Assembly: GCA_043821445.1 (NCBI GenBank) | Contig: JBDRCT010000031.1 | Coordinates: 35,620-99,619, forward strand | Origin: Candidatus Omnitrophota bacterium | GTDB lineage: Bacteria > Omnitrophota > Omnitrophia > Omnitrophales > Aquincolibacteriaceae | DNA length: 64,000 nt | Direction of reading: 5' to 3' | Shown here: positions 17,474 through 36,237 of the stretch, piece by piece | How positions within the stretch are numbered: the first letter of the stretch is position 1 | Layout of the letters: each line of letters starts with the position of its first letter | The notes under the pieces: model-generated | The model's database searches: none | The model's input: only the letters and a program-made list of their open reading frames with translations | Told to the model about the DNA's origin: nothing | Made by a program: the position numbers and the translations under genes

Positions 17474-17878
17474 ATGTCAGGCCATGAAAAGCGTCTACTG
17501 ATCATAGATGATGAGGACGATATCTGCCAGATCGTCAAAGAGAAATTCGAGAATTTGGGCTACAAAGTCTTGACCGCGAATACCACCCACGAAGGATTCA
17601 AGAAAACCGAACAAGATAAACCCGATTGTGTGATTCTTGATATCCGCATTCCCGGAAGAGAGGGCGGATTGGGCTATCTTCAAAGACTTCGCTCTTACCT
17701 TCACAACGATCCCGAGAAACAGGCCCGTATGCGAGAAACCCCGGTGATCGTACTTACGGGGGCCGGCGTCGTGATGCAACCGCTCTTTGAGCAACAGGGG
17801 ATCAGCGGTTTCATTGAAAAGCCTTTAGATTTCACAAAGCTCCAGGCTCAGATCCAAAATATTGTTTGGAAACATTAG
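17474..17878 (+). CDS. Standalone response-regulator receiver domain protein
   Basis: LLIIDDEDDICQIVKE...DCVILDIRIP...PVIVLTGAG. CheY-like receiver with the phospho-acceptor Asp and no output domain. Paralog at 40757. Confidence 0.8.
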   Translation: MSGHEKRLLIIDDEDDICQIVKEKFENLGYKVLTANTTHEGFKKTEQDKPDCVILDIRIPGREGGLGYLQRLRSYLHNDPEKQARMRETPVIVLTGAGVVMQPLFEQQGISGFIEKPLDFTKLQAQIQNIVWKH

Positions 17879-18082: not shown

Positions 18083-18165
18083 GCCCCAAACTTTTTATTG
18101 TTTTCTAAAAGGGCAGTTTGGGCAGCCCCAATTTCAACAGGGCTGAAATTGAAAGGTATTGGGAC
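18083..18165 (+). promoter_or_regulatory. Conserved structured 5' leader motif, copy c (upstream of an RHH gene and the giant gene)
   Basis: P1 hairpin GCCCCAAACT-N22-AGTTTGGGC. Then AGCCCCAATTTCAAC-agggc-TGAAATTG and AAAGGTATTGGGAC. The RHH ATG lies 35 nt downstream after GGAGGAAG. Confidence 0.6.
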
Positions 18166-18200
18166 AGGGAGAAATAAAAAAAGTTTTGAAGGAGGAAGCC

Positions 18201-18401
18201 ATGCGAAGCGTTCAGGAAGTACCCAAGGCGCCGGCCAAACCCCGGGTCCCGGAGGGCACGTGGATGCAGATCACTTTCACGCTCGATCCCGCGCATTACC
18301 GGAGGCTCTGGCAGCGGGCCGAAGAGGAACACCGGACCCTCCCCGACCTCGTCCGTGAAAGCGTAATCTGTTTTTTGGGAGAAATAAAAATCGTTCCTTG
18401 A
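18201..18401 (+). CDS. Small ribbon-helix-helix-like (CopG/ParD-type) protein
   Basis: 66 aa. ITFTLDPAHYRRLWQRAEEEHRTLPDLVRESV resembles an RHH beta-strand-helix-helix DNA-binding fold. Sits immediately upstream of the giant gene. Confidence 0.45.
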   Translation: MRSVQEVPKAPAKPRVPEGTWMQITFTLDPAHYRRLWQRAEEEHRTLPDLVRESVICFLGEIKIVP

Positions 18402-18438
18402 AAGAAACATCCACGGAACGAAACATAGGAGATCTGTC

Positions 18439-21400
18439 ATGAAGCGTTCATTTTCATTTCCCCTCAGATGGGTTGCGTTTTGCATTGCGATGATCTTTGG
18501 CTGGAATCAGATCGTTTGGGCGGGGGAGATTCTTCCGCGGGATTACATCGTTCCTTCAGAACAGCCTGCCACTACGACGTCTGTTTCTGTCCCAGTCGTG
18601 TCGACAGGAGCGATGCCGGTTCAGATGCTGACGACAACGGATTTTTTAGCGAATAAGCGGGGGCCTTTATCTCCCGCAACTAAAGACACGTCTGAAATCA
18701 TTCCAAAGGCGGTCGCTTCTCCAAATACCGCTCGTTATGAATATGAGCGCTATGATTTTCAAGATACGCTTGATCTTTTGAGGCCTGAATTTGCAAGCGC
18801 TGTGATCGTGAAAGAGATCACGGCTGAGGATTTGAAGAAACTTTCCGAGCTGTCGTTTGAAACCGGCGTGATCGTATTGCATGGCGAAATCGTGCTCTTC
18901 ACCTCAGGGAGTGAAGATGAGATTGGCATGTTGTCCGCCGTTAAGATGCTCGCAGACCAAGCGACTTTTATTTCTCATACGCATCCAAGCATTTATTCTG
19001 CAGGAGGCCCGAGCGGTGGTGATATTAACGAAGCCGTTGCAGCACCGGGCGAGGAGTATGTGATCACGCATACCGGAGTTTATGCGTATAACAATGAAGG
19101 GATTTTGAATAATGGCGATTCCCATGGCTATGACTGGTATCTCGAAAAACTTAAGGAAGCCGTGGGGGCTTCAAAAGCGGAACAAGATCAAATTGAGGCG
19201 AGAAAGGATCTCAATGAATTTGTCACAGCTCAGGATGCGTATAACCGCGCCAAGGAAGATGAACGCGAGACCTTCCGGATGGGCGGCACGCTTTCTTATG
19301 CCTCAGGGCTGAAAACTTCGAACATTACGACTTTGTCCGGGAGCCCTTACCCCTACATAACAACCGGTTCAAGCGCTGGGACTGCACTTTCCTATGCCTC
19401 TTCTACCAGTCAATTTAATTTGAGTTATAACGTACCGGGCGCGAGCGACGTCTCGGGTTTTACAATCTCTTTTGATAATGCAAGCACTCCAACAATGGAG
19501 ACGCAGAACATCAGCATTCTTACCAATCTCGTGTTTGGGCTTAAGGGGCCGGCCACTTCGATCAAACTCGAAATCGTAGATATCAATAATGCAAAAGACA
19601 CATTCACGCTGACCGGCATCTCGAACAAAACAGAACGGTTCTGGCGAGTACCTGTCTCGGCGATCCTCAACACGATCGACAAAACCCGGATCACGCAACT
19701 GAATTTTATCATGACGCAGGCTAACACAACCTCGTCCAGAAGGACCGGCGTAATTTCAATCCGCTCCAAGGGCTTGAAAACGACTGCACCTTCTCAACCG
19801 GCTGTTACCTCAACGGTACCTGCTGCGACGAATCAAACAACCCTTCTGCTGTCGGGAACCAAAGAGGCGAACTCGGCCATTTTCATCAATGGCACACAAG
19901 TAGTAGCTCGTGACACTTCCACGACTTGGACATCTACCGTGAATCTTACAACCGAAGGAAATAATACCTTCAATATAACAGCCAAGAACTCCATCGGACT
20001 GGTAAGCACCGCGAAAACTGTAACAATTCAGCGGGATACGGTTGTCCCGACTGGTTCGATCAATATCAATTCGGGAGCCGCCTACACAGCCTCAGTCGCA
20101 GTGACTTTAGATCTTTCGTCAACTGATTCCGGAAGCGGAATCAGTACGATGAGTTTTTCGATGGATAATGTGACCTGGACCACGCCCGAAACTTATGCGG
20201 ATTCCAAGGCTTTTACGCTTCCAATCGGCGACGGTGATAAAACTGTTTATGTGAAGTACTACGATAAGGCTGGGAACGTCAGCGCCGTTTTTTCAAAGCA
20301 TATTCAATTGAGAGCAACCGGTCCGGTGGTTGTGATTGCGACTGGAACTCCGAGTCTGATCAAGGTAAAGACGCTCACGATCAATTACACGGTGGATGGC
20401 GTTGTGAAAGAAAAGACATTCACGGATCTTGCGGAAGGTGAAAACATGTTAACGATTACGGAACAGGATGAAGCTGGTAATGAAACATCCGTTAACTGGG
20501 CCGTGACTCTAGACACAATTCCCCCTGCGGTGGTGGTGACGAACGCTGTTCCGAGTCTGACGAATCAGGCCGCGCTCGTGGTGGATTACACAGCGGATGG
20601 CGTAGTGAAGCAGAAGACCTTCACACTTGCGGAAGGTGACAATGCAGGACTGACGATCAGGGAAGAAGATGCTGCGGGGAATGTTCGGATGATTACTTTA
20701 TCGAACATCGTGCTGGATACGGTGGCTCCGGTGATCGTGGTGACGAGCGCTGTTCCGAGTCTGACGAATCAGGCCGCGCTCGTGGTGGATTACACGGTGG
20801 ATGGCGTAGTGAAGCAGAAGACCTTCACGCTTGCGGAAGGTGACAATGCCGGCCTGACGATTACAGAAGAAGATACTGCGGGAAATGCTCAAACGATCAC
20901 GTTAGCGAATGTGGTGCTAGATACGGTGGCTCCGGTGATCGTGGTGACGAGCGCTGTTCCGAGCCTGACGAATCAGGCCGCGCTCGTGGTGGATTACACG
21001 GTGGATGGCGTAGTGAAGCAGAAGACCTTCATGCTTGCGGAAGGCGATAACACCGGCCTGACGATCACGGAAGAAGATGCCGCGACAAATTCAAGGACGG
21101 TCACCCTATCCAAGGTAATGCTGGATACAGTCCCCCCCGCGATCATGATCGATCCCGCAACGCCACATCTGATAAGTGTGAATACGTTCACTGTCAGCTA
21201 CACCGTAGATGGTGTGTCAAAACTAAAGACCTTTGCCAGTTTGGTAGAAGGTGAGAATGCGCTCACCGTCACAGAAACCGATCTTGCGGGGAACAGAACG
21301 ACCTTGACCCATAGTGTGACTTATACACCTCTCACGGCCATTGCCTTTCCTGTTCTTGAACTCCGTTCTCCGCAAATCGTTACAACACCCAATTATGAAT

Positions 21401-24400
21401 TAATTTATGCCGTGGACGGAACGGAAAAAAGAGAGACCTACGCTTTACAGGAGGGCGTAAATCTTCTTACGATCGAAGAGTCCAGCGCTGCCGGTAAAGT
21501 AATCGCACATTATCTGGTGGTGCTCAATGTAATTGCCGATCCTGTCTTTCCGGCGAATGAGACCGAACTCATTTTCAACCTGAACGGAACCGACGCCGCG
21601 CTTGTCGATCCAAACTTCGATGCTTCAGGATTGATCCAGGCGGGATGGATCAAATCCAAGGATAGGACTGCTTATCGGCTTTCCGGGGGACTGCTTGCGG
21701 AAGAATTCCGGTCCGATGGTACGCATATTTATTATGATTTCTTAGGACGCATTCATTCAAAAATAGACAAAAACAAAAAGATTACCAGCTATCAGTATAA
21801 GATCAATGCTACAGGCAACTTGTTAAGCGCTCATATTGAAGAAGGAAATAATCGGGTTGATCTGGATAGTAACGGTTTAATCCTCTTCTGGAAAAAAGGG
21901 GACGGAACAGAATTTTTCTTCGATTCCGGTCATTTGACCAAAATCAAAAAGGACGTGGTCGAATACCTCTATCAGCTCCGGCAAGTGGGCAGCGAATGGA
22001 TCTCGGAATCGATCGATCCTCTGCCTTTGGACTCTCCTTATCCTGCGTCGCTTCATTACACATCCGATTCGGTACTTTCCCGAACGGTGATGCCGGACGG
22101 GACCATTTATCAATATGATCTTTCGGGCGCGGTGACGCGCGTGGTGGATCCTGCCGGCAAAGAAACTCTTTATGATCCTGAGAAGGATCTGTTTGGCGCG
22201 TTCCATAGCTTTTCAGTGACCCGTGATGGTATTACAAGAATTTACGGCGAGCAAGGCAAGCTGACTCAATTGAAGGATGCGGACGGGACTGTTTTTACGA
22301 TCGATCAAGATAAGGTCGTAATGATCCAAAAACAGGAGGGCGCCTTATACCGGGACTTGGTTTATGACACGACTGGAACTCTTCAAAATGCCTTGGTGAA
22401 ACTGCCGGACGGAAGAGAACTTCTCATCGTCGGTCAGCAACTCACACAGATCAGGACGGTCGACGGAACGATCCTTGAAATCCAAAATGATAAACCGGCC
22501 AGGTCTTTGACCACAAACGGTCGCGTCTATCAGTACCGTGAGTCGACGGATGCAAACGGCAATCCCATTTTTATCGGTGACTTAACGGAATTTATCAACG
22601 ACAAAGGAAACCACATCTTTGTCGCAAACGGCCGGGTGAGCGGCATGGAAGAAACCCGTGGCAGTGTGTTGATCAAGACAGGATTTGCATACGATAACGC
22701 GGGAAGGATCGTCGAGGCCACGATCGATCAAGACGGTGTCCGGACCGCACGGTTCGTCTATGACTACCAAACTAGCGGAACCATTGTCACGAACAATGTG
22801 GGATCGATTCGTTATTACGACTCGTCCGGGACGCTCATGAAACTGATCACGCTCCGTGGGGAGGAGTACACGTTCAGCCAGATCACAGATCCAAGCGGAG
22901 CCGCCGGGTTCCTTCAAACCTTGATAAAAGTAGTCAACCAACTCGAAGGGACGATCGATTATGAGAACGGAAAACCGGTCCGGATCGTACGGCCGGACTC
23001 GATTGAAATGAAGGATATCGTTCTGAATCCCGACGATTCGCTTCTCAGCGCCGTTTTAATCTATCCCAGCGGGGCGGAAGGTCTTATCGAAGCGGGTGAA
23101 TTGAAACAGATCATCGAAACGGACGGCACGAAGAAAGAATATACGGCCGGTCTTCTTCGGAAGATCACTCGCCCCACTTTTGAAGCAACGAACTTCAGTT
23201 ATGCTTTTGATGTTTCGGGCAATCTCACTTCCGTCATCGTTCAGGACGGTTTAGGCTCCAGGACTTATACGACAGCAGGGATTCTGAGTTCTGCGGTCAA
23301 TCCGAGCGACGATATTTTTACCTATGATGCTTTGGGAAATTTGATCAAGGTCAAAACGAGCGCCAATGAAGAATTCAATTATTCAGGCCAGAATTTATCT
23401 TCCATCAAGTTTTCCACGGGGGAAATGCTGACCGGCATTGTTTTGAATGCGAACGGCAACCTTTCGGGAGGCACGTACGATCCCAAAGACGGTTCAATCT
23501 GGACGATCGCGGGCGGCGCGATAAGTCAGATCCGGGACGCAAGCGGGAATAATCTTTATTATTCAGGAGGGCGTGTCACTCAGATTGTTAAAATGAATGG
23601 CGACCGGATTACCTACAATACCTCCGGCCAGATCACTCAGATCACCTGGGCGGACGGTTCCTGCGCCCGTCAAATTACCACCAATTCTCAGGATGCATTG
23701 GTCAACGCGATCATTTATTCGCCCTCATTTGATAGCGCGGTGTTAAGCACTACGCTTTCCGGGATCGGGTCCATGGAAAGACCGCTGGTGAACGGAGTCC
23801 TTCAAACCCCCGGGTCGCAGGTCAGGACCGCGGGTAAGTTTTTTGACTTCAACGGGCTCTACTGGCGTGAAGTTAATTCGACCGCGTTACACGGAACGAC
23901 TCAGAATTACATCCGGGTCAAAATGACGGGTTCGAATTTCACGGTGAGTTTCTACGCCACGAATTACACGAACTCTCTTTTTAGTCAGCAAACCTATCAG
24001 TCCGCGGCAGGGTCTCCGTATGTCTACATCCCGCTTCCCGATCTTTCCGTAAAATATCTTTACGCGATCGAGATTTCCCCCAAAGGGAATGCCACGGTAG
24101 ATATCACGGACACTCCACTCGTTTTTTCGAGCGGGGACTATCAGCCCGTTGCATGGGTGAATACGGCCACCGCCTTTATAAATCAAAAAATAGTGCCGGG
24201 TTTTCCGGAAAGGATCACTGCGGCATTGTCCCAGAAAACGGCCTTGGAAAGCGCCTCTCAAGATTTTTCCGCTGCCGAAACCTTTAGTACGGTCAAAGTC
24301 AGCGATAGCCAATTCCAAATAGAAAGTCTCAAGAACGCGGTACTGCAAGCGCGACTGTCGCCGGATGCTGTTATCTCGGCCACTTATAACAGAGACACGA

Positions 24401-27400
24401 ACCTTCTTTTTACGGCCCACAGTGATCCTGCTTTTGATCCTGCGGCGGACGCAAACGGAGAATGGAAAAACTCGGTGTCCGGCTGGGAAGAGGATGGATT
24501 TGATTTTGCACCCGTCGTCACCGCGCCTTCCGGGGATGTGCCGCTTAAGATCGAATATGCCTCGAATGGCGGAAGCCAGACGGTGTCTTTTCAAAACGCA
24601 TCTCGGGCCATCTATCAAAACGATCGCATCGAGACCCTTATTACCCCGGAAGGGAAGACGGTTCATTACTCCTATGCCGCTGGGTCCAGTGATGTCGACC
24701 GGGTGATCTTCGACCCCGATCAAATCGACCCAGAAACGACCGAAGTGAAATACGAGTATGGAAAAATACGAGAGATTAGAAAAGCAGGGGCACTTGTCTA
24801 TCTTTACTCCTATGAATTTGACGATTTAGGGGACGAGATCACCGTGATCGAAGATACTGTAGAAAATCAGATCCGCCGGTTTTTGAAAGGAAAACTTATC
24901 TCGATAAGCAATTTAAATAGCGGCTTTAAGACGGTTTATGATTACGACGGCTCAGGCCGGATCGCGAAAGCAGTCACCTCCCGTTCGGGCCGCATCTTCG
25001 GCGCATTCGCTTATGCTTACTCCGGCGACGATACCCTGATCACCGAGGAAGCGACGGGTATTTCAAGGCGTTACGGCGCGGACGGGTTCCTGAAAGAATT
25101 GATCACGGCCAAAGATGAATTTTATAAATATTCCGTTCTTTCGGACGGACAAGCCGAGGACCTTCTGCTTCAGGAGCTCGTGAAGATCGTTACTTCCCGC
25201 GGCACGATCGAGTACAGCAGAGAAAAACCTGTTGAGATCACCGCCGCGGACGGTACCGTGATCAAAAACCTCATCGTCGAATCTTTCGTGGATGAAAATC
25301 ACATGACCCGCATGGTGATCCAACGAGCCGAAGTGCATTTGCCCGCTCCGGACGGAAGGATCGCCTTGATCGAAAAAGGGAAGGTGTTTTATATAAGCTC
25401 TCCGGGCGGAGAGATCCAGGAATTTGAGAATGGATTTTTGGAAAGACTGGTTAATGCCCAGGGTGAGATCACGGACCTCATTTACACGCGGAACGCCTCC
25501 GGGGAGATCGAATCGATCGGTGTAGAGGACAAGAACGGACTGAGGATTTATGACAGGAATGGACAATTGATTCGCGCGGTTCTGCCGGATACCACGCAGA
25601 TCGATTATGACGCGAGCGGCCAGTTGCTCCGGCTCCAGACTCCGGGCGGAGAAATATGGGGATATTCAGCGGGCAGTCTAAGTTCGATGACCTTGGCGGG
25701 GGGTGGCGGAAAAATCGAGCAGATTGTCTTAGATGCGTCAGGAAACGTGCAGTCCTGTGTTTACACTAAAGACGGCATCGTCACCACCATTCAAAACGGC
25801 GCCGTTGCCAGCAAAAAAACGTTGGATGGCACTCTTTTCATCTATGGCTCTTCCGGGAAAGTAGTTGAGATCCTGAAACCGGCGGGCGCGGGTTATGACC
25901 GGCTGATCTATGATGCGAACGGAGTCTTGACTTCCGTTGAACGCGCGGACGGTTCCCGTGCGCGTCAGATCACGGCCGATGCACAGGACACCTTGATCAA
26001 CGCGATCATTTACTCGCCCTTATTTGACGGTGCCGTGTTAAACGCAACGCTTCCCGGAATCGGGTCCAAGGAAAGACCTCTGGTGAACGGGGTCCTTCAA
26101 ACTCCCGGGTCGCAGGTCGGGACCGCCAACGAATTTTTTGACTTCAACGGGCTTTACTGGCGCAGTGTTAATTCAACCTCGTTGCACGGCGCGAATCAAA
26201 ATTATCTCCGGATCAAGATGATGGGTTCGAATTTTACGGTGAGTTTCTACTCCACCAATTACACGAACTCCCTCTTCAGTCAGCAAACTTATCAGTTTGT
26301 GGTCGAATCTCCGTATGTCTACATCCCGCTTTCCGATCTTTCCGTAAAATATCTTTATGCGATCGAGATTTCCCCCAAAGGGAATGTCGCGATGGATATC
26401 ACGGATACTCCGCTTGTTTTTTCGAGTGGGGATATGCCCGCTATGGATTGGACGGGGATCGCGAGCGGTTTTACGGATCAAAAAGACAGACCCGCAGTGC
26501 CGTCGATCATTAACGAGACTCTTTTTAAAAAAGCAGCTTTTGAGACCCAGGCCGCGGATCAATTCTTACTTCGGTCGCCGGACCAGCTTGATGAAGGCCA
26601 AGCTCAGACGTTCTACGATTCTGCTCTCGGCATCGTGAAGGGCGCGTTGCTTGAACCCGAAACGATCATTGCGGCGGCTTACCGGGCCTCTGACAGCACA
26701 CTCTTGATGGCTGCCCGTGCCAATAACACCGTGGCGCACTACGTCAACGGGCAGATCGACTATGTCACGGATCTGGACGGGAATTTGCTTATCGACCACG
26801 AGTATGACGCCGCTGGGGACCTGGTCGCGGTTCATCTCATGGATGCGAAGAAAAAATTAGAGGAGCAGATCATCGCTGCTCAGACGGAGGTCTCACGTCA
26901 GGAAACTGAGGCGCTGATGGCGCTTGCCGTTGAGCGCGGGCACGCGATCGAGGCGATCCAAAACAAATTGAATGAGGGCCTGGCTGCGATCAATGCCGAG
27001 CGGGAAAGGATCCGGCAGCTCAGTTCTCAGCGGGTCTGCCGCACAGTCCTGTTCTTTAAATCTTGCGAGAACGTTCAAGTCGATGTGAGCGCACCCCTTT
27101 CGGAACTCGATCAGATGGAGAAGGACCTTCGCGAAGAAACGGCCGTGGCGCTTGCCGGACTTGATGCCGTTGTGGCCCAGAAGAAAACAGAGATAGAAAC
27201 GGATGCCAAGGCGGCGTTTGTCGAATTAGAGAAGCAGCAGCTCACCACCTACCGCGAGATCCTGAAACAGGAATTAAGACCCGTTCTTTTCCATCACTAC
27301 CGGAAGATTCTCGGAAGAGATCCGTCCGAAGGCGAGATCGATACGTGGCTTAAGCGCGAGATCGGAGACGACCATGTGAGCCTCCTCTCATTTAAAGAGG

Positions 27401-30400
27401 CGGTCTCAGCCCGCGGGCTGAATTTTGCGGGGGCTTGGGTGGATCTTGACCAGTTGAAAGTCTTGTCAGGCTTGTCTCAAACCGGTGTTTTAGCCTCTCT
27501 CAAGGATGTCGGTTTTGTGATGGTGACGGACGTGAGCGGCGGGAATGTGACTTTTGTCCAACGGAGTCTCGGCAACCGGACCCAGGAACTGAAGATCGAG
27601 CTCGTGCCGTGGCTCGATGCGAACGGGGTGCCGATCCTGGATACCGGAGGGAATATCATTTGCGTCGAAAAATATGTCTTCGTTTCCAAGAATGACGGCT
27701 TCGGCGGCGAAGAAGTGACGGTGAGCGAGGACGAGTTCTTAAGCCGTTGGCTTAAAGAGAACAGCCTTAAGGGAGCGGTGTTCACCGATCAGCCGCTTGG
27801 GACGGGTTCCGTTCTTATGACGGACGAGGAGGCAAAGGCCATCTCCGGATTATCTTCCTGGGATATCCTTGTGGAATATTTCAAATCGGCGTTCGGGATC
27901 GATCCGGAGCGGGCCAACGTTCCGAAACTTATCAGAGAATTGAGCAGTAGTGAAGAATACAGTGTTCGTTTGGCGCAAGTGAACGCGATCAAAGCAGCGG
28001 TCCGGGATTTTCTGGACTTGTATCTCGCGTCGGACGAAGCGGGACGTTCCGCCAAGATCCAGTCTTTGGGCCTGGTCCCGGAAGAGGTCATTTCTATTAC
28101 ATCCCCGGAAATAGAAACGATCCTGGCCTGGCTCGATTCCCGCGACCTCCACTTCGGTCATTCCGCCTTTTTTGCGATCCAGCATTTGATCGAAGAAAAC
28201 AATGTTCAGGCGTCGCTTTTTGATATCGCCCGCGAAGCAATTCTAATCGATATCATGACGGGCGTGATCCATCCGCTCACGACCGGGGACCTGGAACTTT
28301 CCCTTTTTGCTCTCAACCGGGTTGCCAAAAACCGCGGCGTGCTCTTGACTCCCGCCAAAGTCACTTTCGAGGAACTCAAGCGCGAAGTCGTTCAAGGCAA
28401 GGGCGTTCTGGTTCATATGAACGGCAACCATTACGTCGTGGTGACCCAAATAGCACTCGCGGCCCGGACGGACGAAAATGGCGACCCTGTGCTGGATGAG
28501 CAAGGCGCTCCTGTCATGATCGAGGTCGTGACCTATATCGAAAAGAATGTGGGGCCGTCGGGCGAGGCGCAAACGCTCGCGCGGTCAGAATTTGAAAAGA
28601 TATGGATGGTGACCGCGGAGGGCGAGGGGATCGTGCTGACGCCGGCGGAAGTTTCGAACAACGCCACAATCATGACGGACCGGGAGACCCAGCAGATCAC
28701 GGGCGCGTTCTTCGGTTTTATCTTCGGGATCCTGAAGAAGATCTTTGATACCGTGATCCAGGTGGTGAAAGCTGTTTTTGAGGCTGTAAAGACGGTTTTG
28801 CGTTATGTCGTCGATCTTGTGGTCGATGTGGTCCGGGCTCTCACGGATTTCGTGTTGGAGCTCGGTAAAAGTCTCGTCTCGCTCGGGCAGTTCTTCTTTG
28901 AGGCCGTTCGTTTTGTCGGGGCCATTTTGAGCGGAGATCTGAACGGAGGGTTCCAGTCGCTCCAGCGGGCGCTCGGTCATTTCGGGAATTTCCTGTTCTT
29001 CGCCGCGGCGGTGGGTGGGTTCCTTGTGCCGGGGCTGGCCCCGCTTCAAGTGATCGGCTTCCAGGTCTTGAGCGTTGCCCTGAGCAAAGGGACCGGCGTC
29101 GTTCTGGATAAGATCGGGATCAAAAGCCCGGTAATCAAAAACCTGATCGGTAGTTTTATTACGGGCGGGGTCTTTGGCTTTGCCGGCGGTCAGATCGGAT
29201 CGGGGACCACGTTTTTAAACTCCGCATTGGCCAATCTTGCCATGTCGGGCGTCAATGAGCTTGCCCTGCATATCGGCCTTTCTCCTCCGATCGCGGCGAA
29301 CCTGGGTATTCTTGCGAGTATTATCACCGGCTCCGTGGAAGGCGGCGCAAGCCTCCCGGAAGCTTTCAAGACCGTCGCCCCGGACCTGATAAAAGAACTG
29401 ACCCTTTCCGGTGTATGGGCCCTCGGAACCTCCCTTGGCATCGACCCTCGTCTGACCTCGCTCATATCCCTGCCACTTGGAGCCGGTATCGGCGTTGGTT
29501 TTGACAGTTTACTTCACGCAAGCACGATCAATTTCGCCAGTCTTACGGCCGCTATCAAAAACGGTCTCGCCGCCGGTGCAAAATCGATCGGTTTCGATTT
29601 CGGGGGCGCGACAAGTCATCCGATTTTCGGTTCGCTTCTGAGTGGAAATATTTTAAGTTCTATCGGAAGCGCCATGGGGGACGGCAGCCTCTTCAGCGGC
29701 ATTCTGGATATTCTCAAAACGGCGGTCCTTATCCCGTTCAACGCCGCGAATGACATGGTCCAAATGACGCTTCAGGGGGTACGCAATTTTGATTCCTTGA
29801 TCCAGGAAAAAGGTCTTGCCGGAGCGCTGGAATCCCTGCTTACGTCCATATTCAGCCGCCAGACAATAGAAAAATTGTTAGGTTCCGGAGGCATTGGAGG
29901 ATTCGTCGGTTCTGTGGCAAAGATCCCCGCCACGCTCAACGGCCAAAGCGTTCTGGAACAGAAGTTCGACGGCACGACCTCTCTTTTTTATGACCTTGCG
30001 GGCAATTTTATCGGCAAAAAAGAGAATGGCGTCACGCAACTCGGCGCCTTTGGCTTCGATGTTGCCGGCAAATGGGCCCTTCTGGCCGGCCAGGTATTCG
30101 CGCCGCTTGCCGGTGGCTTGGCCTTTGCCGGAGAAGTGGCGGATGGTCAGCTCCGTAATGGAAAGGTCTATGATCCGAATGGCATTTTAGTCGGTACCCT
30201 GGATCCGGAAAAGGATGGCGAATTCATAGAAATCGACGGTCGCGATCCTCAAAATCCGGATTCCAATTCTTCCGGCAAATTCTGGTCCGGTATTTTTAAT
30301 CTTGCCACATTGGGACTGCAGTTCTTCTTCCAGGATGGAGTTTTGCGGAAGATCGAGTCCTCGGTTTCCAGCAACGCCGATGTGTCCAATTTGTTTAAAA

Positions 30401-31368
30401 GTAAATTTCTTTTTGGCAACGGGTTTAATAGCACAATGGTTCCCGAAGGAACACTAGATACGTTAATTCCGGCCTATAGCAACAACCTATTATTAGATGG
30501 TGTGATCAATTTAATGCAAACGTTAATGGTTTCCTTATACGAAACAACAGAGCTATTCGGAAATATGGGAGAGTGGGCGAGCGACTTCATCTACAGAATG
30601 GACGACAAGGATTTCTTTCAAAGCCTGCTTTCGGGGACCTTTACCGGAGTTCTCCCTGCTCTTTTTATGAACTGGCTCTTTCCCAATAATTTGGTCACGG
30701 AGGTTAGAAATAAACTCTTGGCCCTTGAAGATAGTCAGGGTTGTCTCGAAAAGGGGATCGCGTTCGCTCATTCAGGGTTTTTTGCCCCTCTTCTTGGCGT
30801 TTTAAGTGACACGCGTCCAGATGGCTCAAAATTTGATGTTCAGACTCTCATCAACTATGAAGGTCCTTATGTGGATTACAACGCATACATTGACAATCCT
30901 TATTTGAAACGTATTATCAACGTTTGGGGAACAGCTCCAACAATTTTCCCACCCCTAACAGGGCAGTGGACAGGGAATTACGTCATAGATCCTCGTTCGG
31001 GTGATTTGGTTCGAGAATTGGATCCAACGAAAAAGGATGTGCAGATCAGTGATTTTGGTCCACCGTTTATTGCTCCTGCGAATTTCACGGGGCTGGCGGA
31101 TATTGAGAATATCAATATCGAGATCATTGGAGCCCGGCACAATGACTTTGCGTATGATCCAATCGCTTGGAATATGGATCGCTATCTCCCTGAAGAACGT
31201 GCGAGAAAGATCAATCTCCTGACGAATCAATTTATGCGACAATTATATGGCGCCGTGGCACAAGATCAAGCCGAACCGGGTAAGTTGCTCTTATTCTTGC
31301 GAAACCATCCAAATGCCGAGCAAGACACCGTGACTGGGATTTGGCAAATTGATTTTGGCATAGCATGA
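18439..31368 (+). CDS. Giant secreted YD/RHS-repeat-like polymorphic-toxin-type protein (4309 aa)
   Basis: Uninterrupted 12.9 kb ORF. RBS GGAGA. Signal peptide. Ig-like repeat region (aa ~450-1000). Dozens of YDxxG(R/N)L YD-like repeats. Coiled coil. DUF4214-like YRKILGRDPSEGEIDTWL. C39-like GNHYVVV segment. A ~480-aa Gly-rich hydrophobic region. The last ~100 aa are homologous to the orphan cassette at 32396..32716. Stop overlaps the next gene's ATG (ATGA). Confidence 0.9.
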   Translation: MKRSFSFPLRWVAFCIAMIFGWNQIVWAGEILPRDYIVPSEQPATTTSVSVPVVSTGAMPVQMLTTTDFLANKRGPLSPATKDTSEIIPKAVASPNTARYEYERYDFQDTLDLLRPEFASAVIVKEITAEDLKKLSELSFETGVIVLHGEIVLFTSGSEDEIGMLSAVKMLADQATFISHTHPSIYSAGGPSGGDINEAVAAPGEEYVITHTGVYAYNNEGILNNGDSHGYDWYLEKLKEAVGASKAEQDQIEARKDLNEFVTAQDAYNRAKEDERETFRMGGTLSYASGLKTSNITTLSGSPYPYITTGSSAGTALSYASSTSQFNLSYNVPGASDVSGFTISFDNASTPTMETQNISILTNLVFGLKGPATSIKLEIVDINNAKDTFTLTGISNKTERFWRVPVSAILNTIDKTRITQLNFIMTQANTTSSRRTGVISIRSKGLKTTAPSQPAVTSTVPAATNQTTLLLSGTKEANSAIFINGTQVVARDTSTTWTSTVNLTTEGNNTFNITAKNSIGLVSTAKTVTIQRDTVVPTGSININSGAAYTASVAVTLDLSSTDSGSGISTMSFSMDNVTWTTPETYADSKAFTLPIGDGDKTVYVKYYDKAGNVSAVFSKHIQLRATGPVVVIATGTPSLIKVKTLTINYTVDGVVKEKTFTDLAEGENMLTITEQDEAGNETSVNWAVTLDTIPPAVVVTNAVPSLTNQAALVVDYTADGVVKQKTFTLAEGDNAGLTIREEDAAGNVRMITLSNIVLDTVAPVIVVTSAVPSLTNQAALVVDYTVDGVVKQKTFTLAEGDNAGLTITEEDTAGNAQTITLANVVLDTVAPVIVVTSAVPSLTNQAALVVDYTVDGVVKQKTFMLAEGDNTGLTITEEDAATNSRTVTLSKVMLDTVPPAIMIDPATPHLISVNTFTVSYTVDGVSKLKTFASLVEGENALTVTETDLAGNRTTLTHSVTYTPLTAIAFPVLELRSPQIVTTPNYELIYAVDGTEKRETYALQEGVNLLTIEESSAAGKVIAHYLVVLNVIADPVFPANETELIFNLNGTDAALVDPNFDASGLIQAGWIKSKDRTAYRLSGGLLAEEFRSDGTHIYYDFLGRIHSKIDKNKKITSYQYKINATGNLLSAHIEEGNNRVDLDSNGLILFWKKGDGTEFFFDSGHLTKIKKDVVEYLYQLRQVGSEWISESIDPLPLDSPYPASLHYTSDSVLSRTVMPDGTIYQYDLSGAVTRVVDPAGKETLYDPEKDLFGAFHSFSVTRDGITRIYGEQGKLTQLKDADGTVFTIDQDKVVMIQKQEGALYRDLVYDTTGTLQNALVKLPDGRELLIVGQQLTQIRTVDGTILEIQNDKPARSLTTNGRVYQYRESTDANGNPIFIGDLTEFINDKGNHIFVANGRVSGMEETRGSVLIKTGFAYDNAGRIVEATIDQDGVRTARFVYDYQTSGTIVTNNVGSIRYYDSSGTLMKLITLRGEEYTFSQITDPSGAAGFLQTLIKVVNQLEGTIDYENGKPVRIVRPDSIEMKDIVLNPDDSLLSAVLIYPSGAEGLIEAGELKQIIETDGTKKEYTAGLLRKITRPTFEATNFSYAFDVSGNLTSVIVQDGLGSRTYTTAGILSSAVNPSDDIFTYDALGNLIKVKTSANEEFNYSGQNLSSIKFSTGEMLTGIVLNANGNLSGGTYDPKDGSIWTIAGGAISQIRDASGNNLYYSGGRVTQIVKMNGDRITYNTSGQITQITWADGSCARQITTNSQDALVNAIIYSPSFDSAVLSTTLSGIGSMERPLVNGVLQTPGSQVRTAGKFFDFNGLYWREVNSTALHGTTQNYIRVKMTGSNFTVSFYATNYTNSLFSQQTYQSAAGSPYVYIPLPDLSVKYLYAIEISPKGNATVDITDTPLVFSSGDYQPVAWVNTATAFINQKIVPGFPERITAALSQKTALESASQDFSAAETFSTVKVSDSQFQIESLKNAVLQARLSPDAVISATYNRDTNLLFTAHSDPAFDPAADANGEWKNSVSGWEEDGFDFAPVVTAPSGDVPLKIEYASNGGSQTVSFQNASRAIYQNDRIETLITPEGKTVHYSYAAGSSDVDRVIFDPDQIDPETTEVKYEYGKIREIRKAGALVYLYSYEFDDLGDEITVIEDTVENQIRRFLKGKLISISNLNSGFKTVYDYDGSGRIAKAVTSRSGRIFGAFAYAYSGDDTLITEEATGISRRYGADGFLKELITAKDEFYKYSVLSDGQAEDLLLQELVKIVTSRGTIEYSREKPVEITAADGTVIKNLIVESFVDENHMTRMVIQRAEVHLPAPDGRIALIEKGKVFYISSPGGEIQEFENGFLERLVNAQGEITDLIYTRNASGEIESIGVEDKNGLRIYDRNGQLIRAVLPDTTQIDYDASGQLLRLQTPGGEIWGYSAGSLSSMTLAGGGGKIEQIVLDASGNVQSCVYTKDGIVTTIQNGAVASKKTLDGTLFIYGSSGKVVEILKPAGAGYDRLIYDANGVLTSVERADGSRARQITADAQDTLINAIIYSPLFDGAVLNATLPGIGSKERPLVNGVLQTPGSQVGTANEFFDFNGLYWRSVNSTSLHGANQNYLRIKMMGSNFTVSFYSTNYTNSLFSQQTYQFVVESPYVYIPLSDLSVKYLYAIEISPKGNVAMDITDTPLVFSSGDMPAMDWTGIASGFTDQKDRPAVPSIINETLFKKAAFETQAADQFLLRSPDQLDEGQAQTFYDSALGIVKGALLEPETIIAAAYRASDSTLLMAARANNTVAHYVNGQIDYVTDLDGNLLIDHEYDAAGDLVAVHLMDAKKKLEEQIIAAQTEVSRQETEALMALAVERGHAIEAIQNKLNEGLAAINAERERIRQLSSQRVCRTVLFFKSCENVQVDVSAPLSELDQMEKDLREETAVALAGLDAVVAQKKTEIETDAKAAFVELEKQQLTTYREILKQELRPVLFHHYRKILGRDPSEGEIDTWLKREIGDDHVSLLSFKEAVSARGLNFAGAWVDLDQLKVLSGLSQTGVLASLKDVGFVMVTDVSGGNVTFVQRSLGNRTQELKIELVPWLDANGVPILDTGGNIICVEKYVFVSKNDGFGGEEVTVSEDEFLSRWLKENSLKGAVFTDQPLGTGSVLMTDEEAKAISGLSSWDILVEYFKSAFGIDPERANVPKLIRELSSSEEYSVRLAQVNAIKAAVRDFLDLYLASDEAGRSAKIQSLGLVPEEVISITSPEIETILAWLDSRDLHFGHSAFFAIQHLIEENNVQASLFDIAREAILIDIMTGVIHPLTTGDLELSLFALNRVAKNRGVLLTPAKVTFEELKREVVQGKGVLVHMNGNHYVVVTQIALAARTDENGDPVLDEQGAPVMIEVVTYIEKNVGPSGEAQTLARSEFEKIWMVTAEGEGIVLTPAEVSNNATIMTDRETQQITGAFFGFIFGILKKIFDTVIQVVKAVFEAVKTVLRYVVDLVVDVVRALTDFVLELGKSLVSLGQFFFEAVRFVGAILSGDLNGGFQSLQRALGHFGNFLFFAAAVGGFLVPGLAPLQVIGFQVLSVALSKGTGVVLDKIGIKSPVIKNLIGSFITGGVFGFAGGQIGSGTTFLNSALANLAMSGVNELALHIGLSPPIAANLGILASIITGSVEGGASLPEAFKTVAPDLIKELTLSGVWALGTSLGIDPRLTSLISLPLGAGIGVGFDSLLHASTINFASLTAAIKNGLAAGAKSIGFDFGGATSHPIFGSLLSGNILSSIGSAMGDGSLFSGILDILKTAVLIPFNAANDMVQMTLQGVRNFDSLIQEKGLAGALESLLTSIFSRQTIEKLLGSGGIGGFVGSVAKIPATLNGQSVLEQKFDGTTSLFYDLAGNFIGKKENGVTQLGAFGFDVAGKWALLAGQVFAPLAGGLAFAGEVADGQLRNGKVYDPNGILVGTLDPEKDGEFIEIDGRDPQNPDSNSSGKFWSGIFNLATLGLQFFFQDGVLRKIESSVSSNADVSNLFKSKFLFGNGFNSTMVPEGTLDTLIPAYSNNLLLDGVINLMQTLMVSLYETTELFGNMGEWASDFIYRMDDKDFFQSLLSGTFTGVLPALFMNWLFPNNLVTEVRNKLLALEDSQGCLEKGIAFAHSGFFAPLLGVLSDTRPDGSKFDVQTLINYEGPYVDYNAYIDNPYLKRIINVWGTAPTIFPPLTGQWTGNYVIDPRSGDLVRELDPTKKDVQISDFGPPFIAPANFTGLADIENINIEIIGARHNDFAYDPIAWNMDRYLPEERARKINLLTNQFMRQLYGAVAQDQAEPGKLLLFLRNHPNAEQDTVTGIWQIDFGIA
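20519..21150 (+). repeat. Tandem 210-nt (70-aa) near-identical coding repeats within the giant gene
   Basis: Three almost identical copies (VAPVIVVTSAVPSLTNQAALVVDYTVDGVVKQKTFTLAEGDNAGLTITEED...) plus more divergent flanking copies from ~20320 to ~21540. Confidence 0.85.
23641..24140 (+). repeat. Internal ~500-nt segmental duplication in the giant gene (copy 1)
   Basis: ITWADGSCARQITTNSQDALVNAIIYSP...SVKYLYAIEISPKGN...PLVFSSGD is repeated at 25936..26435 (about 80% nt identity). Confidence 0.85.
25936..26435 (+). repeat. Internal ~500-nt segmental duplication in the giant gene (copy 2)
   Basis: VERADGSRARQITADAQDTLINAIIYSP...SVKYLYAIEISPKGN...PLVFSSGD. Confidence 0.85.
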
Positions 31369-31874
31369 AAAAAACATTTATTGTTTCCATGATTTTAATA
31401 GTCTTGGGGCTTACTGTCGCAATGCTATTTTTTCAAAAAGAAAATTCAGGATCGAGCGTTCAACCCATAGGTGAAAAAGGGATTTCTGTAGGAAGTCGAA
31501 GCGGAGCGTTTATTTCTATGGACGCAAAGCAAAAACCGCATCCTGAAACTCTAAAAGAGGTAGAGGACTATAAACGTGATATTAAAGCAATTGATGATGC
31601 GTGGGCCAATATTAGGACTGGGAGTTCTTACTTTAAGAATGGTGACTATGCAAAGGCCGCAGAAGCATATGAAAAGGCTTATGTAATCGGCGGTGGGATA
31701 AAGCATGTGAGTGGTTTTGATTTAGCTGACGTATATGAAAAGCTTGGTCGTTATGATGATGCCGTAACAGTTTTGGACAATATGATTAAAAATCGAGAAA
31801 CGAATGAGTATGGTATTCAGAAAGCCAGCGAAATTCGCACCTGCCTCCTTGCCGCTAAAGCCAAACAGCAATAG
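31365..31874 (+). CDS. Candidate immunity protein (TM + TPR-like, 169 aa) coupled to the giant gene
   Basis: ATG overlaps the giant-gene stop (gcATGAaa). N-terminal TM helix. TPR-like YFKNGDYAKAAEAYEKAY. Conserved tail FDLADVYEKLGRYDDA..NEYGIQKA..IR. Paralog at 32716. Confidence 0.6.
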   Translation: MKKTFIVSMILIVLGLTVAMLFFQKENSGSSVQPIGEKGISVGSRSGAFISMDAKQKPHPETLKEVEDYKRDIKAIDDAWANIRTGSSYFKNGDYAKAAEAYEKAYVIGGGIKHVSGFDLADVYEKLGRYDDAVTVLDNMIKNRETNEYGIQKASEIRTCLLAAKAKQQ

Positions 31875-31925
31875 ACTTAAAGTTTAGAACTTTTCTTCCA
31901 GAAATTTCCTCTACGGAAACCGGAC

Positions 31926-31988
31926 ATCCGGTTCCGGGAATCGCTCAAGGAAACCGCGGTTGAGGCGGGCATCACGATCCCATGGTAA
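31926..31988 (+). pseudogene. Displaced 3'-end fragment of the 36238..37164 gene family
   Basis: CCGGTTCCGGGAATCGCTCAAGGAAACCGCGGTTGAGGCGGGCATCACGATCCCATGGTAA is near-identical to 37105..37164 (...RFRESLKETAVEAGLTIPW*). No upstream gene body. Confidence 0.7.
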
Positions 31989-32236
31989 TCCCTATGAATC
32001 CATTATGGCTGGCTGGCATAGCGGTCTTGGTTTTGAATCTTCCCTTCGGATTTTGGCGCGTCCACGTCCGGAAATTTTCACCCTCCTGGTTCCTGGCGGT
32101 CCATCTTCCCGTCCCGTTCGTGATCGCGATCCGCTTCCTCATGCGGCTTGGCTTTCATCCCGTCACGTATCCGGTCCTTGTGGGCGCGTTTTTTACGGGG
32201 CAATTCCTTGGCGGTAAGATCGCAAAATCGAAGTAG
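31982..32236 (+). CDS. Small hydrophobic membrane protein (84 aa)
   Basis: Two to three predicted TM helices. Lies between the two displaced gene-end fragments. ATG at 31982 or 31994. Confidence 0.4.
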   Translation: MVIPMNPLWLAGIAVLVLNLPFGFWRVHVRKFSPSWFLAVHLPVPFVIAIRFLMRLGFHPVTYPVLVGAFFTGQFLGGKIAKSK

Positions 32237-32238
32237 GG

Positions 32239-32390
32239 ATCCCGCAGTTATGTCTGTCCCCCCAAAAGGGACTGCCACAGGTTCTTGTCGGTGCCGGTGG
32301 GGACGAGCGTCGGACCTTGGAGGAACAGGATCTCCTGGCTTCCCGGCGGCGTGGCCGCGGTGCACCGAATGACGGGAACGCTTACGGAGA
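32239..32390 (-). pseudogene. Displaced 3'-end fragment of the 37188..38420 (-) gene family
   Basis: About 85% nt identity to 37188..37335. Encodes the conserved C-terminal tail ...SVPVIRC(T/I)A(A/S)TPPGSQEILFLQGP(T/M)LVP(T/A)GTD(K/Q)N(L/M)WQS(L/P)LGGQT. Homology ends abruptly at ~32390. Confidence 0.7.
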
Positions 32391-32719
32391 ATGGAGATTT
32401 TGGTCCGCCGACCTGGACTTTTGATGATGCTAACTTTACAGGCCCAGCAGGAATTGAAAATATTAATATCGAGATCATTGGGGCCAGACATAATGATTTT
32501 TCCTATGATCCTGCCGCTTGGAATTCGAATCCCTATGAACCGGAAGCAGAAGCGCAGGAAATTAATCGGAAAACGAATTTATTTATGAGAGATTTATACA
32601 AATTTGCTCTTCAGGATCAAACCAATGCGGGTGTTTTATCGAATTTTCCGAGAACCGAATCTGTCGTGAGTTATAACTCATCTAGAAATATTTGGGTCGT
32701 AGATTTTGGTGATGTATGA
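32285..32719 (+). CDS. Orphan toxin C-terminal-domain cassette (homolog of the giant protein C-terminus)
   Basis: From ~32396 (DFGPPTWTFDDANFTGPAGIENINIEIIGARHNDFSYDPAAWN...) it is about 50% identical to giant aa ~4195-4309. The upstream part of the ORF (32285..32395) is antisense to the displaced fragment, so an independent start is doubtful. Stop overlaps the next ATG (ATGA). Confidence 0.55.
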   Translation: MSVPVGTSVGPWRNRISWLPGGVAAVHRMTGTLTENGDFGPPTWTFDDANFTGPAGIENINIEIIGARHNDFSYDPAAWNSNPYEPEAEAQEINRKTNLFMRDLYKFALQDQTNAGVLSNFPRTESVVSYNSSRNIWVVDFGDV

Positions 32720-33225
32720 AAAATAGAACGCTTTTCATTCTGGGCTTTATTTTTACTATTCTGATGCTCGTTATTTTCTTATTTCGGCAAACGAATACAT
32801 TCCAATCTAAGCTTGAAATCTGGCCGATGGGAGACGGTAAGGGGATTTTCGTTGGAGAAAGTAAATCCCGATATATGGAACGTAATTCCCAAGGCCAATC
32901 TGAAGAGATAAGGAAAAGAATAGAGCAACATGAGGTTGATGTCGGTGCCATTGAGGAAGCACATCGATACAGGATGCAGGCCTATGGTTTTATTAAAAAT
33001 GGCCAGTTGAAGGAGGCTGCCGTAGCGTTTGAGAAAGCATATGCGGCAAAAAGGCATGCTGTCACAGTTTTTGATTTAGCTGACGTATATGAAAAGCTCG
33101 GTCGTTATGATGACGCTATCACTATTTTAGATAATATGGTTCTAAGTAAAGAAACCAATGAATACGGGATCCAAAAAGCCGTTGAAATTCGTGCCCGTCT
33201 CCTAGCTGCCAAAGCCAAACCGTAA
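32716..33225 (+). CDS. Candidate immunity protein paralog (169 aa) of 31365..31874
   Basis: Same length, N-terminal TM helix and conserved tail (VFDLADVYEKLGRYDDAITILDNMV..ETNEYGIQKAVEIRARLLAAKAK). ATGA coupling to the orphan toxin domain. Confidence 0.6.
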   Translation: MKNRTLFILGFIFTILMLVIFLFRQTNTFQSKLEIWPMGDGKGIFVGESKSRYMERNSQGQSEEIRKRIEQHEVDVGAIEEAHRYRMQAYGFIKNGQLKEAAVAFEKAYAAKRHAVTVFDLADVYEKLGRYDDAITILDNMVLSKETNEYGIQKAVEIRARLLAAKAKP

Positions 33226-33432
33226 AAAAACGGCATCGTTCTATTTTGATCCAATCAGAGGGACAAATTTTGAAAGCATATTGAAAAAAAGGGGTCACAC
33301 CTGGGGCGGAGGCGTTACTGTGGGTGTCAGGCAGGCTTATATTTCCCGGCTAGAGTCAGGAGAGGTCAAGCCAACGCAGGAGCAGATAGAGGTTATTCAG
33401 ACGTTTCTTGATTAGCAACGGAGTGCCAGACG

Positions 33433-33543: not shown

Positions 33544-33550
33544 GGTGCTT

Positions 33551-36125: not shown

Positions 36126-36237
36126 CCGGATCCCTAGCCTCTTACTTTGCTTGTCTTGGGCTGGGAGAGATTAAGCCCACGCAGGAGCAGATTGAGGTTA
36201 TTCAGACGTTTCTTGACTAGCGACGGAGTGCCAGACC

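Follow-up and report, generated by a model that had tools for sequence, protein, structure and literature searches.

Organization of the locus and the C-terminal hydrolase module

We analyzed a 64,000-nucleotide (nt) stretch of DNA from a Candidatus Omnitrophota bacterium (contig JBDRCT010000031.1 of assembly GCA_043821445.1), referred to below as the window, which contains a giant gene, a small gene coupled to its 3' end, and, farther downstream, an incomplete second copy of this pair. Nucleotide coordinates are those of the window, and amino acid (aa) numbers are those of the giant protein. The giant gene is an uninterrupted 12.9-kb open reading frame (ORF) at 18439..31368 (+) that encodes 4309 aa plus a stop codon, which verifies the description given in an earlier reading made from the letters of the sequence (the sequence-only reading). 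As that reading also noted, the protein has a Sec-type N-terminus: inspection of the sequence predicts a signal peptide at aa 1-28 (MKRSFSFPLRWVAFCIAMIFGWNQIVWA, ending in VWA before GE; 18439..18522 (+)), and N-termini that resemble it are found in ~25 family members.

The C-terminal end of the giant protein is a predicted alpha/beta-hydrolase domain (30259..31365 (+)), which we designate subtype A. The sequence-only reading had taken the last ~100 aa for a domain of its own, from a toxin family that could not be placed, and both statements have to be replaced. Homologs of the last 350 aa can be aligned from one end of this segment to the other, so that the C-terminal module is ~330 aa long, a separate 100-aa domain is ruled out, and what had been taken for a domain is the module's C-terminal third. 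Searches of Pfam (E ≤ 1), NCBIfam, PADLOC, and PDB sequences assigned the last 350 aa to no family, and the placement comes from fold comparison alone, which indicates an alpha/beta-hydrolase fold with a strand-Ser-helix nucleophile elbow in the modeled structure. The conserved hydrolase motifs are FGNGF, AFAHSGF, INYEGP, INVWGT, DFGPP, and NINIEIIGARHNDF. In the sequence alignment, Ser4112 (in AHSGF, nt 30772), Asp4205 (in DFGPP, nt 31051), and His4234 (in GARHNDF, nt 31138) are conserved in the order Ser-acid-His and form a putative catalytic triad. Around the nucleophile, subtype A has AHSGF and a second subtype, B, has the canonical G[FY]SGG.

The stop codon of the giant gene overlaps, within ATGA, the start of partner gene 1 (31365..31874 (+)), which encodes a 169-aa protein with an N-terminal transmembrane (TM) anchor and tetratricopeptide repeats (TPRs). 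Its one strongly hydrophobic N-terminal helix and its match to TPR_2 (40.4 bits; cut-off, 27) agree with the coupled TM/TPR-like gene of the sequence-only reading. In all related loci with downstream DNA (>25 loci), the gene after the hydrolase is of the TM+TPR type and either overlaps it or lies within ~50 nt. Neither the hydrolase nor the partner matches any Pfam toxin or immunity model, and the partners match TPR models only, with no match to a lipase chaperone (Lipase_chap-type) in Pfam or NCBIfam.

Approximately 0.5 kb 3' of partner gene 1 lies an orphan, 5'-truncated hydrolase fragment (32396..32716 (+), in an open frame of 116 aa at 32369..32719), the product of which is identical to a protein in public data (P0028). 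Over 105 aa it shares 55% identity with aa 4205-4307 of the giant protein (tblastn E value, 4.5e-19), so the second copy of the C-terminal end that had been proposed is real at the protein level. This is the sole other match in the window to the C-terminal region of the giant protein. A tblastn search with the whole giant protein gave one further window hit, an Ig-like similarity at 37332-38060; pseudogene remnants of the giant gene between partner gene 1 and the orphan were excluded by the same search. The fragment is coupled through ATGA to partner gene 2 (32716..33225 (+)), the paralogous 169-aa TM+TPR gene that had been described, whose product has a hydrophobic N-terminal helix and a TPR_19 match (33.5 bits; cut-off, 25). 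The two partners are 45% identical (27% in the N-terminal half and 63% in the C-terminal half), and one 30-nt tract is identical in both genes. Comparison of the window copies gives a ratio of nonsynonymous to synonymous substitution rates (dN/dS) of 0.23 at the hydrolase end and of 0.19 between the TPR genes. Homology of the orphan begins exactly at Asp4205 (DFGPP), so the nucleophile Ser is missing and, as judged from its sequence, the fragment cannot be a complete enzyme; it appears to be a 5'-truncated, displaced remnant. The sequence-only reading had called this a spare orphan toxin/immunity cassette, and while the C-terminal copy and its paired gene are present, a complete spare toxin is not.

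Distribution of the family and exchange of the cassette

When 1.84 billion representative proteins were searched exhaustively with a profile, the C-terminal hydrolase family was found in 123 clusters, mostly from Omnitrophota. In ~28 clusters the hydrolase forms the very C-terminal end of proteins that are 2800-4473 aa long and have signal-peptide-like N-termini, and all but one of these long proteins have a C39-like domain 500-900 residues upstream of the hydrolase. Approximately 20 short-ORF clusters are C-terminal fragments with variable break points. Eight of the 11 species-representative genomes with a match are metagenome-assembled genomes (MAGs) or single-amplified genomes (SAGs) of Omnitrophota, and the other three are MAGs binned elsewhere; no plasmid homologs were found. 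The relatives are collinear, with Ig-like, YD-repeat, coiled-coil, C39-like, Gly-rich, and hydrolase regions followed by the TM+TPR gene. Some genomes encode the protein in two pieces, one with the YD repeats and one of ~1550 aa that makes up the C-terminal portion. The split into two ORFs lies before the coiled coil at two loci (L006:5-11167 and L009:9-11230) and after the C39-like domain at a third (L010:2810-10978); in L006 and L010 it is caused by just one stop codon in frame.

At least three hydrolase subtypes occur on one conserved scaffold, each with its own type of partner. Subtype A, found in the window, has the motif AHSGF and a ~169-aa partner; subtype B (P0009/L003 and L037) has G[FY]SGG and a ~250-aa partner that ends in SDYFPW; and subtype C (P0067 and others) has HF[AS]HSG[ND]FQP and a 286-aa TPR partner. 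The locus of P0067 is syntenic with the window (HrcA-GrpE-DnaJ-4HBT-GpsA-FadL-small ORF-giant-partner), and P0067 is 40-60% identical to the window giant from aa ~800 to ~3700, beyond which identity falls to 20-30% with gaps. Unlike the window, this orthologous locus carries a subtype C hydrolase and a 286-aa partner. The similarities of the individual modules are also discordant. P0115, P0062, and L037 have the Gly-rich regions closest to that of the window (43-47%) together with different hydrolase subtypes, and L017 has the closest hydrolase (60%) together with a distant Gly-rich region (28%).

The base composition of the locus changes at the same end of the gene. The GC content at third codon positions (GC3) is 0.69-0.75 in the housekeeping genes for DnaJ and GpsA and 0.66 in the part of the giant gene from the coiled coil to the Gly-rich region. 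It shifts to low values near aa 3980 and is 0.47 in the hydrolase, 0.33 in partner gene 1, 0.32 in the orphan, and 0.38 in partner gene 2, which makes the cassette atypical (0.32-0.47 versus 0.55-0.75 elsewhere). Because the orthologue has a different subtype, the module similarities are discordant, and the GC3 is atypical, these comparisons suggest that hydrolase and partner constitute a cassette that can be exchanged. The alternative of an invariant C-terminal module without polymorphism was dropped in view of the subtype exchange in L037 and P0067 and the discordant module similarities.

Orphans comparable to that in the window are found at other loci. In L037, a subtype B gene and its partner are followed by a frameshifted subtype A fragment, an intact subtype A TPR gene, and a transposase gene. 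L016 has the order hydrolase-TPR-transposase-TPR-transposase, in which the second TPR gene has no hydrolase fragment, and L005, L009, L033, and L036 contain other truncated hydrolase fragments with TPR genes.

Genes similar to those for REP-associated tyrosine transposases (RAYTs; match to NF047646 with 78 bits, the cut-off being 80) are found near nine loci (L002, L005, L006, L013, L016, L021, L026, L033, and L037). At 8 loci they are 10-290 nt 3' of the TPR gene on the same strand; others are directly 5' of truncated hydrolase genes. The two in L016 (988-1878 and 2496-3377) each have 23- to 26-nt inverted repeats on both sides. The window itself has no Y1 transposase gene, and its REP-like sequences are at chance level.

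A C39-like domain with an adjoining leader-like site

Upstream of the hydrolase is a C39-like domain, of the double-glycine peptidase fold (28081..28638 (+)). The sequence-only reading had pointed to a C39-like segment here, and this holds for the fold but not for the Pfam score, which is 18.5 bits against a cut-off of 22. Fold comparison strongly confirmed the C39 papain-like fold of the modeled domain; the C39-like domain of HlyB is its second-best structural match, with PCAT1 and ComA listed beside it as C39-fold comparisons. A family profile compared with PDB sequences retrieved only C39 domains (E values, 0.0015-0.02). The catalytic Cys expected of Peptidase C39 is replaced by Ser3242 (nt 28162), which lies at the start of a helix, where LahT has Cys27, and Ser is found at this position in 21/21 aligned family members. 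Ser3242 and His3331 (nt 28429) are invariant in the family. Typical members have an acid at His+16, the same spacing as His101/Asp117 of LahT, and the window protein has an acid, E3368, at the C39 Asp position.

Some 20-45 residues past the C39-like domain, the family has the consensus L[ST]xxExxx[IV]xG[AGS] followed by FF. In the window protein this is the double-glycine-leader-like motif MTDRETQQITGA (aa 3412-3423; 28672..28707 (+)), which with the FF spans aa 3412-3425. The strict pattern is found at the same place in 16/33 long (>1300 aa) family proteins, near-variants are found in others, and the G[AGS] pair is kept in every aligned member. Double-glycine leaders follow the rules L at -12, E at -8, a hydrophobic residue at -4, and a GG, GA, or GS ending (PMC6363468), and MTDRETQQITGA fits at -12, -8, -4, and the end pair.

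The motif is followed by a Gly-zipper-rich amphipathic/hydrophobic region (aa 3424-3940; 28708..30258 (+)), recognized by its composition. It contains 15% Gly, 16 GxxxG motifs, and a hydrophobic stretch at aa 3512-3556, consistent with the Gly-rich hydrophobic region of the sequence-only reading, and is 26-47% conserved across relatives. A word-indexed homolog search with aa 2760-3960 returned 1 protein, being swamped by the low-complexity Gly region, and a query with the C39-like region returned 2. In class II bacteriocins, too, a Gly-rich hydrophobic polypeptide follows the leader. Based on the conservation of Ser, His, and acid, the adjoining leader-like motif, and the Gly-rich hydrophobic sequence that follows it, we propose that the candidate cleavage point is after Gly3422-Ala3423, in cis. 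The sequence suggests that cleavage there would free a ~890-aa fragment consisting of the Gly-zipper region and the hydrolase.

The N-terminal half of the giant protein

An N-terminal domain (aa ~120-230; 18796..19128 (+)) contains a JAB/MPN metalloprotease-like motif, E...HTHx9SxxD, that is kept in six homologs; Pfam HMM and PDB sequence searches gave it no support. The Ig-like repeats noted in the sequence-only reading are detected at aa ~461-1050 (19819..21588 (+)), with Pfam matches to Big_13 (54 bits), Glucodextran_B (36 bits), and Big_3_3 (28 bits). They are followed by the YD/RHS-repeat region (aa ~1051-2795; 21589..26823 (+)), which matches RHS_repeat (PF05593) with 77 bits for the protein and 46 bits in each half and TIGR01643 with 40 bits. 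The presence of YD repeats is therefore secure, and "dozens" of them, as had been stated, is too high, with ~17 motif matches in aa 1060-2800. Inserted in the YD region are two 266-aa internal repeats, 60% identical (E value, 6e-111) and without a Pfam match, at 23632-24429 (aa ~1732-1997) and 25927-26724 (aa ~2497-2762). Between the YD repeats and the C39-like domain, composition predicts an Ala/Glu-rich coiled coil that carries a YRKILGRDPS motif (aa ~2796-2975; 26824..27363 (+)). This motif is kept in relatives; its earlier description as DUF4214-like found no backing, as two overlapping segments gave no match to Pfam PF13946 at an E value of ≤1.

Proposed function and alternative explanations

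Several features of this family are those of polymorphic toxin systems in general. Its members share the N-terminal and central part and differ in the C-terminal module, the variants being distant homologs; the gene immediately 3' covaries with that module; and orphan fragments are found in the window (32396-33225) and at L005, L009, L016, L033, L036, and L037. Of the polymorphic-toxin organization put forward in the sequence-only reading, the linked pair and the truncated downstream copy stand, and the subtype exchange and recurrent orphans agree with it; the ~100-aa domain, the spare toxin, and the membership in the Rhs/CdiA/MafB class do not. We consider it probable, if only slightly so, that the locus encodes a Sec-exported giant effector of a polymorphic-toxin-like system. 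The analysis itself yields folds, conserved residues, gene linkage, subtype exchange, a composition shift, and recurrent orphans, and from these we infer the effector's route of export, its cleavage and activity on membranes, its substrate and target, its toxicity, and the immunity against it. In the proposed mechanism, the signal peptide would direct transport across the inner membrane, and the Ig-like and YD-repeat part (aa ~460-2800) would serve as a surface or delivery scaffold. The C39-type domain (Ser3242/His3331/acid) would cut the adjoining site between MTDRETQQITGA and FF (aa 3412-3425), and the freed ~890-aa fragment, with a membrane-active Gly-zipper region and an esterase/lipase-like alpha/beta-hydrolase, would attack the envelope of a target cell. 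The coupled 169-aa protein, anchored in the inner membrane with its TPRs facing the periplasm, would be the cognate immunity partner. Hydrolase and partner would together be an exchangeable cassette, and the downstream fragment and second TPR gene may be the displaced 3' remnant of an earlier cassette of which the immunity gene was retained. A bolder version, in which the giant surface protein matures itself in the manner of a bacteriocin and frees a ~890-aa "mega-bacteriocin" against prey, hosts, or rivals, with cassettes swapped between strains with the help of RAYT-like genes, strikes us as speculative and rather unlikely as a whole.

Several observations weigh against this interpretation. 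Every step of it is computational. The hydrolase model is of moderate quality (mean predicted local distance difference test [pLDDT] score, 60), with its first 144 residues unreliable, and its top fold matches are a mixture of chlorophyllase, thioesterases, and lipases that does not distinguish a substrate class. No dedicated system for export across the outer membrane was found in the window. The C-terminal variants all share a single fold family, unlike the unrelated toxins of classical polymorphic systems. Position -7 of MTDRETQQITGA is not Leu, and at one locus (L031) an interrupted TPR gene lies beside an intact hydrolase. Two of the steps can be read differently on the same evidence, as can the meaning of the orphan.

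The C39-like domain might bind without cutting, because Ser replaces the catalytic Cys and the inactive HlyB domain is its second-best structural match. It would then be a noncatalytic module like that of HlyB, docking the double-glycine-like helix or another protein, with no cleavage at this site. The change from Cys to Ser in all 21 aligned members and the Pfam score under the cut-off are what such a module would lead one to expect. However, HlyB-type C39-like domains have lost the triad, whereas here Ser, His, and acid are retained without variation at the places, and with the spacing, seen in the C39 triad, and the scissile G[AGS] pair of the substrate-like motif is kept in every member; papain-fold enzymes with a Ser nucleophile do exist. 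We regard a loss of catalysis as rather unlikely. The partner raises a comparable question, since an inner-membrane-anchored helical protein encoded right after a lipase gene is also a hallmark of lipase-specific foldases. The TPR protein could be a steric chaperone, foldase, or export helper of the Lif/LipB kind for the hydrolase, and the giant protein could be a surface degradative enzyme or adhesin for feeding or predation. The membrane-anchored, all-helical repeat protein directly 3' of and coupled to an alpha/beta-hydrolase gene would suit this role, and a partner subtype specific to each hydrolase subtype would be expected of a specific foldase as well; in addition, giant proteins of Omnitrophota are thought to act in predation and cell-wall degradation (bioRxiv 10.1101/2023.11.21.568195). 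On the other hand, intact partner genes lie beside frameshifted or absent hydrolase fragments (L037 and L016), and partner gene 2 of the window is intact next to a fragment without a nucleophile, although a foldase with no client should decay. The partners also lack a Lipase_chap-type Pfam match, and conflict systems bear the marks seen here, namely exchange of cassettes, atypical GC3, and arrays of orphans. Given that partner genes persist where the hydrolase fragment next to them is broken or missing, we infer an immunity role for the TPR partner in preference to a foldase role, which we regard as improbable.

The downstream pair could be a decaying, functionless by-product of tandem duplication or rearrangement, neither a reservoir for recombination nor a source of extra immunity. 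The fragment lacks two thirds of the domain, Ser4112 included; no convincing promoter or ribosome-binding site lies ahead of it, promoter-like sites around it being at chance level (terminator-like sites, at 5 versus 2.6 expected, give no usable signal); and the break points of such fragments differ among genomes, which suggests accidents rather than a defined module. Nevertheless, both frames (107 and 169 codons) are intact despite 45-55% protein divergence, and the dN/dS values of 0.19-0.23 point the same way, although they mostly reflect divergence that predates the displacement. In L037 the fragment is frameshifted and the TPR gene intact, which argues for selection on the TPR gene, and the 30-nt tract identical in both window TPR genes suggests ongoing gene conversion. 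We regard simple decay as rather unlikely and favor a remnant whose immunity gene has been retained.

Comparison with known systems

The closest parallels are the Sec-dependent RHS-repeat polymorphic toxins in a survey that also covered releasing peptidases, toxins of the Tox-ABhydrolase type, a C39-like toxin domain with a papain fold, and immunity proteins that contain TPRs (PMC3482391). Like those toxins, the giant protein has a signal peptide, YD repeats, an internal domain of the releasing-peptidase type, and a C-terminal enzymatic module, together with a linked 3' gene, joint exchange of module and gene, and truncated orphan cassettes downstream. Unlike them, the window system uses one hydrolase fold family with at least three subtypes, has ~1500 aa of extra modules (coiled coil, C39-like, and Gly-zipper) between repeats and toxin, places the C39-like domain internally, with Ser for Cys and beside its own substrate-like site, and has a TM-anchored TPR protein as partner.

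YD repeats, a C-terminal enzyme, a candidate immunity gene, and orphan cassettes are likewise shared with YD-shell toxins of the Rhs/Tc type (RhsA and TcB-TcC). The Rhs/CdiA/MafB assignment of the sequence-only reading nevertheless has to be given up. There is no TIGR03696 Rhs-associated core and no PxxxxDPxGL aspartyl autoprotease motif (no P....DP.G in all 4309 aa), and no PAAR, VgrG, or TcA partner was seen. Of the features that mark CdiA, a two-partner secretion (TPS) domain, filamentous hemagglutinin (FHA) repeats, and a VENN-like sequence, Pfam and NCBIfam matched none, and Pfam gave no match to DUF1020, the N-terminal domain that marks MafB. Encapsulation of the window toxin in a YD shell is doubtful because the toxin lies ~1500 aa beyond the repeats.

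The leader-like motif resembles the substrates of the C39 peptidases of peptidase-containing ATP-binding cassette (ABC) transporters (PCAT) and ABC transporter maturation and secretion (AMS) proteins such as LahT150, PCAT1, and ComA in having L at -12, E at -8, a hydrophobic residue at -4, and G at -2 with [GAS] at -1, and a Gly-rich hydrophobic polypeptide follows it, as in bacteriocin and microcin substrates. The arrangement differs in that enzyme and site share one 4309-aa chain rather than being divided between a transporter and a small peptide, Ser takes the place of Cys as the nucleophile, no ABC transporter part is present, and the predicted product is ~890 aa long and ends in an enzyme.

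Type VI secretion system (T6SS) lipase effectors exert their action from the periplasm and are matched by immunity proteins located in the envelope (PMC13133936), and Sel1/TPR-like (helical-repeat) immunity proteins are documented (PMC7108748). The window pair is similar to the Tle/Tli pairs of this system in combining a serine-hydrolase effector that has a GxSxG-like elbow with an envelope-located candidate immunity partner. It is unlike Tle in that the window has no type VI genes, there is no sequence match to Tle families (DUF2235 etc.), and the carrier is a giant Sec-exported protein. The Lif/LipB proteins of Pseudomonas and Burkholderia are membrane-anchored, periplasm-facing helical proteins encoded directly 3' of the lipase gene. 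The window partner is also membrane-anchored, helical, and encoded directly 3' of the hydrolase, but it has no sequence match to Lif/LipB, is much smaller (169 aa), and belongs to a family whose genes persist without an intact hydrolase gene.

Within the phylum, the "Archaeovorins" of Omnitrophota are very long secreted proteins with C39 domains that were proposed to cleave them (West-Roberts et al. 2023, bioRxiv 10.1101/2023.11.21.568195). The giant protein shares with them the phylum, the very long secreted chain, and the C39-type domain, but Archaeovorins are ≥30,000 aa long and have glycosyl-transferase/hydrolase and SecA-like domains. A YD, hydrolase, or TPR cassette is not described in the Archaeovorin preprint or in a 2026 preprint on 176 complete Omnitrophota genomes (bioRxiv 10.64898/2026.06.07.730766). 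What distinguishes the window system is thus the single hydrolase fold with several subtypes, the cis arrangement of a peptidase with a Ser nucleophile and its site, the long Gly-zipper region, and the TM-anchored TPR partner.

Omnitrophota are uncultivated, very small bacteria that are suspected of living on other cells, and the locus points to a candidate weapon and a candidate gene for self-protection. With it come two families not described before, one of alpha/beta-hydrolase effectors and one of TM+TPR partners, in at least three subtypes. If the cis site and the Ser nucleophile function as proposed, they would widen the use of C39 peptidases beyond transporter-linked peptide export, and the giant protein could become a model for the self-processing of very long bacterial proteins into working parts. 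The replacement of the cassette at the orthologous locus, the composition shift, and the recurrent RAYT-like neighbors suggest strain-level conflict in Omnitrophota, which to our knowledge has not previously been shown in this phylum.

Upstream region and neighboring genes

The RHH-type small regulator and conserved leader motif that had been noted upstream of the giant gene could both be located. A 66-aa ribbon-helix-helix (RHH)-like ORF, with GGAGG before its ATG, is recognizable by inspection at 18201..18401 (+); it has a weak DUF6411 match (20 bits, under the cut-off), and the syntenic locus of P0067 has a 71-aa ORF at the same position. The 14-nt motif GGGAGAAATAAAAA occurs exactly twice in the 64 kb, against a chance expectation of 0.03: at 18167..18180 (+), 21 nt 5' of the RHH-like ORF, and at 18377..18390 (+), 49 nt 5' of the start of the giant ORF. 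The genes that flank the locus are chromosomal and encode DnaJ, a 4HBT thioesterase, GpsA, an outer-membrane protein of the FadL type, and a response regulator. The stand-alone response regulator is encoded at 17474-17878 (+), 5' of the giant gene, and response regulators and 7TM-GAF histidine kinases adjoin homologous loci in several genomes (L006, L007, L009, L010, and L026).

The spacer between partner gene 1 and the orphan contains an 84-aa small membrane ORF with two helices (31982..32236 (+)), which has a host-like GC3 of 0.66 and no homolog in related loci and may be outside the system. Just 3' of the second TPR gene is a 208-aa P-loop ORF (33470-34096 (+)) with a Zeta_toxin match (25.8 bits; cut-off, 22.3), followed by a phospholipase D (PLD)-like signal-peptide gene (PLDc_2, HKD motif; 34233-34802 (+)) that is split into two ORFs by a single in-frame stop at 34536-34538. 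Three paralogous small MORN_2-repeat proteins are encoded at 34696-35214, 38744-39349, and 40113-40631 (+); this repeat type also occurs in YwqK-type antitoxins. By analogy, the low-GC stretch 3' of the cassettes might contain more genes of the immunity-like kind. Two copies of a 168-nt direct repeat (80% identical; 33336-33503 and 36141-36308) surround a low-GC block with the zeta-like, PLD-like, and MORN genes and a membrane protein gene of no assigned family. Farther downstream, 37188-38420 (-) encodes a 410-aa secreted protein with Ig-like repeats (Big_13 and Glucodextran_B) that shares 25% identity with the giant protein's Ig region.

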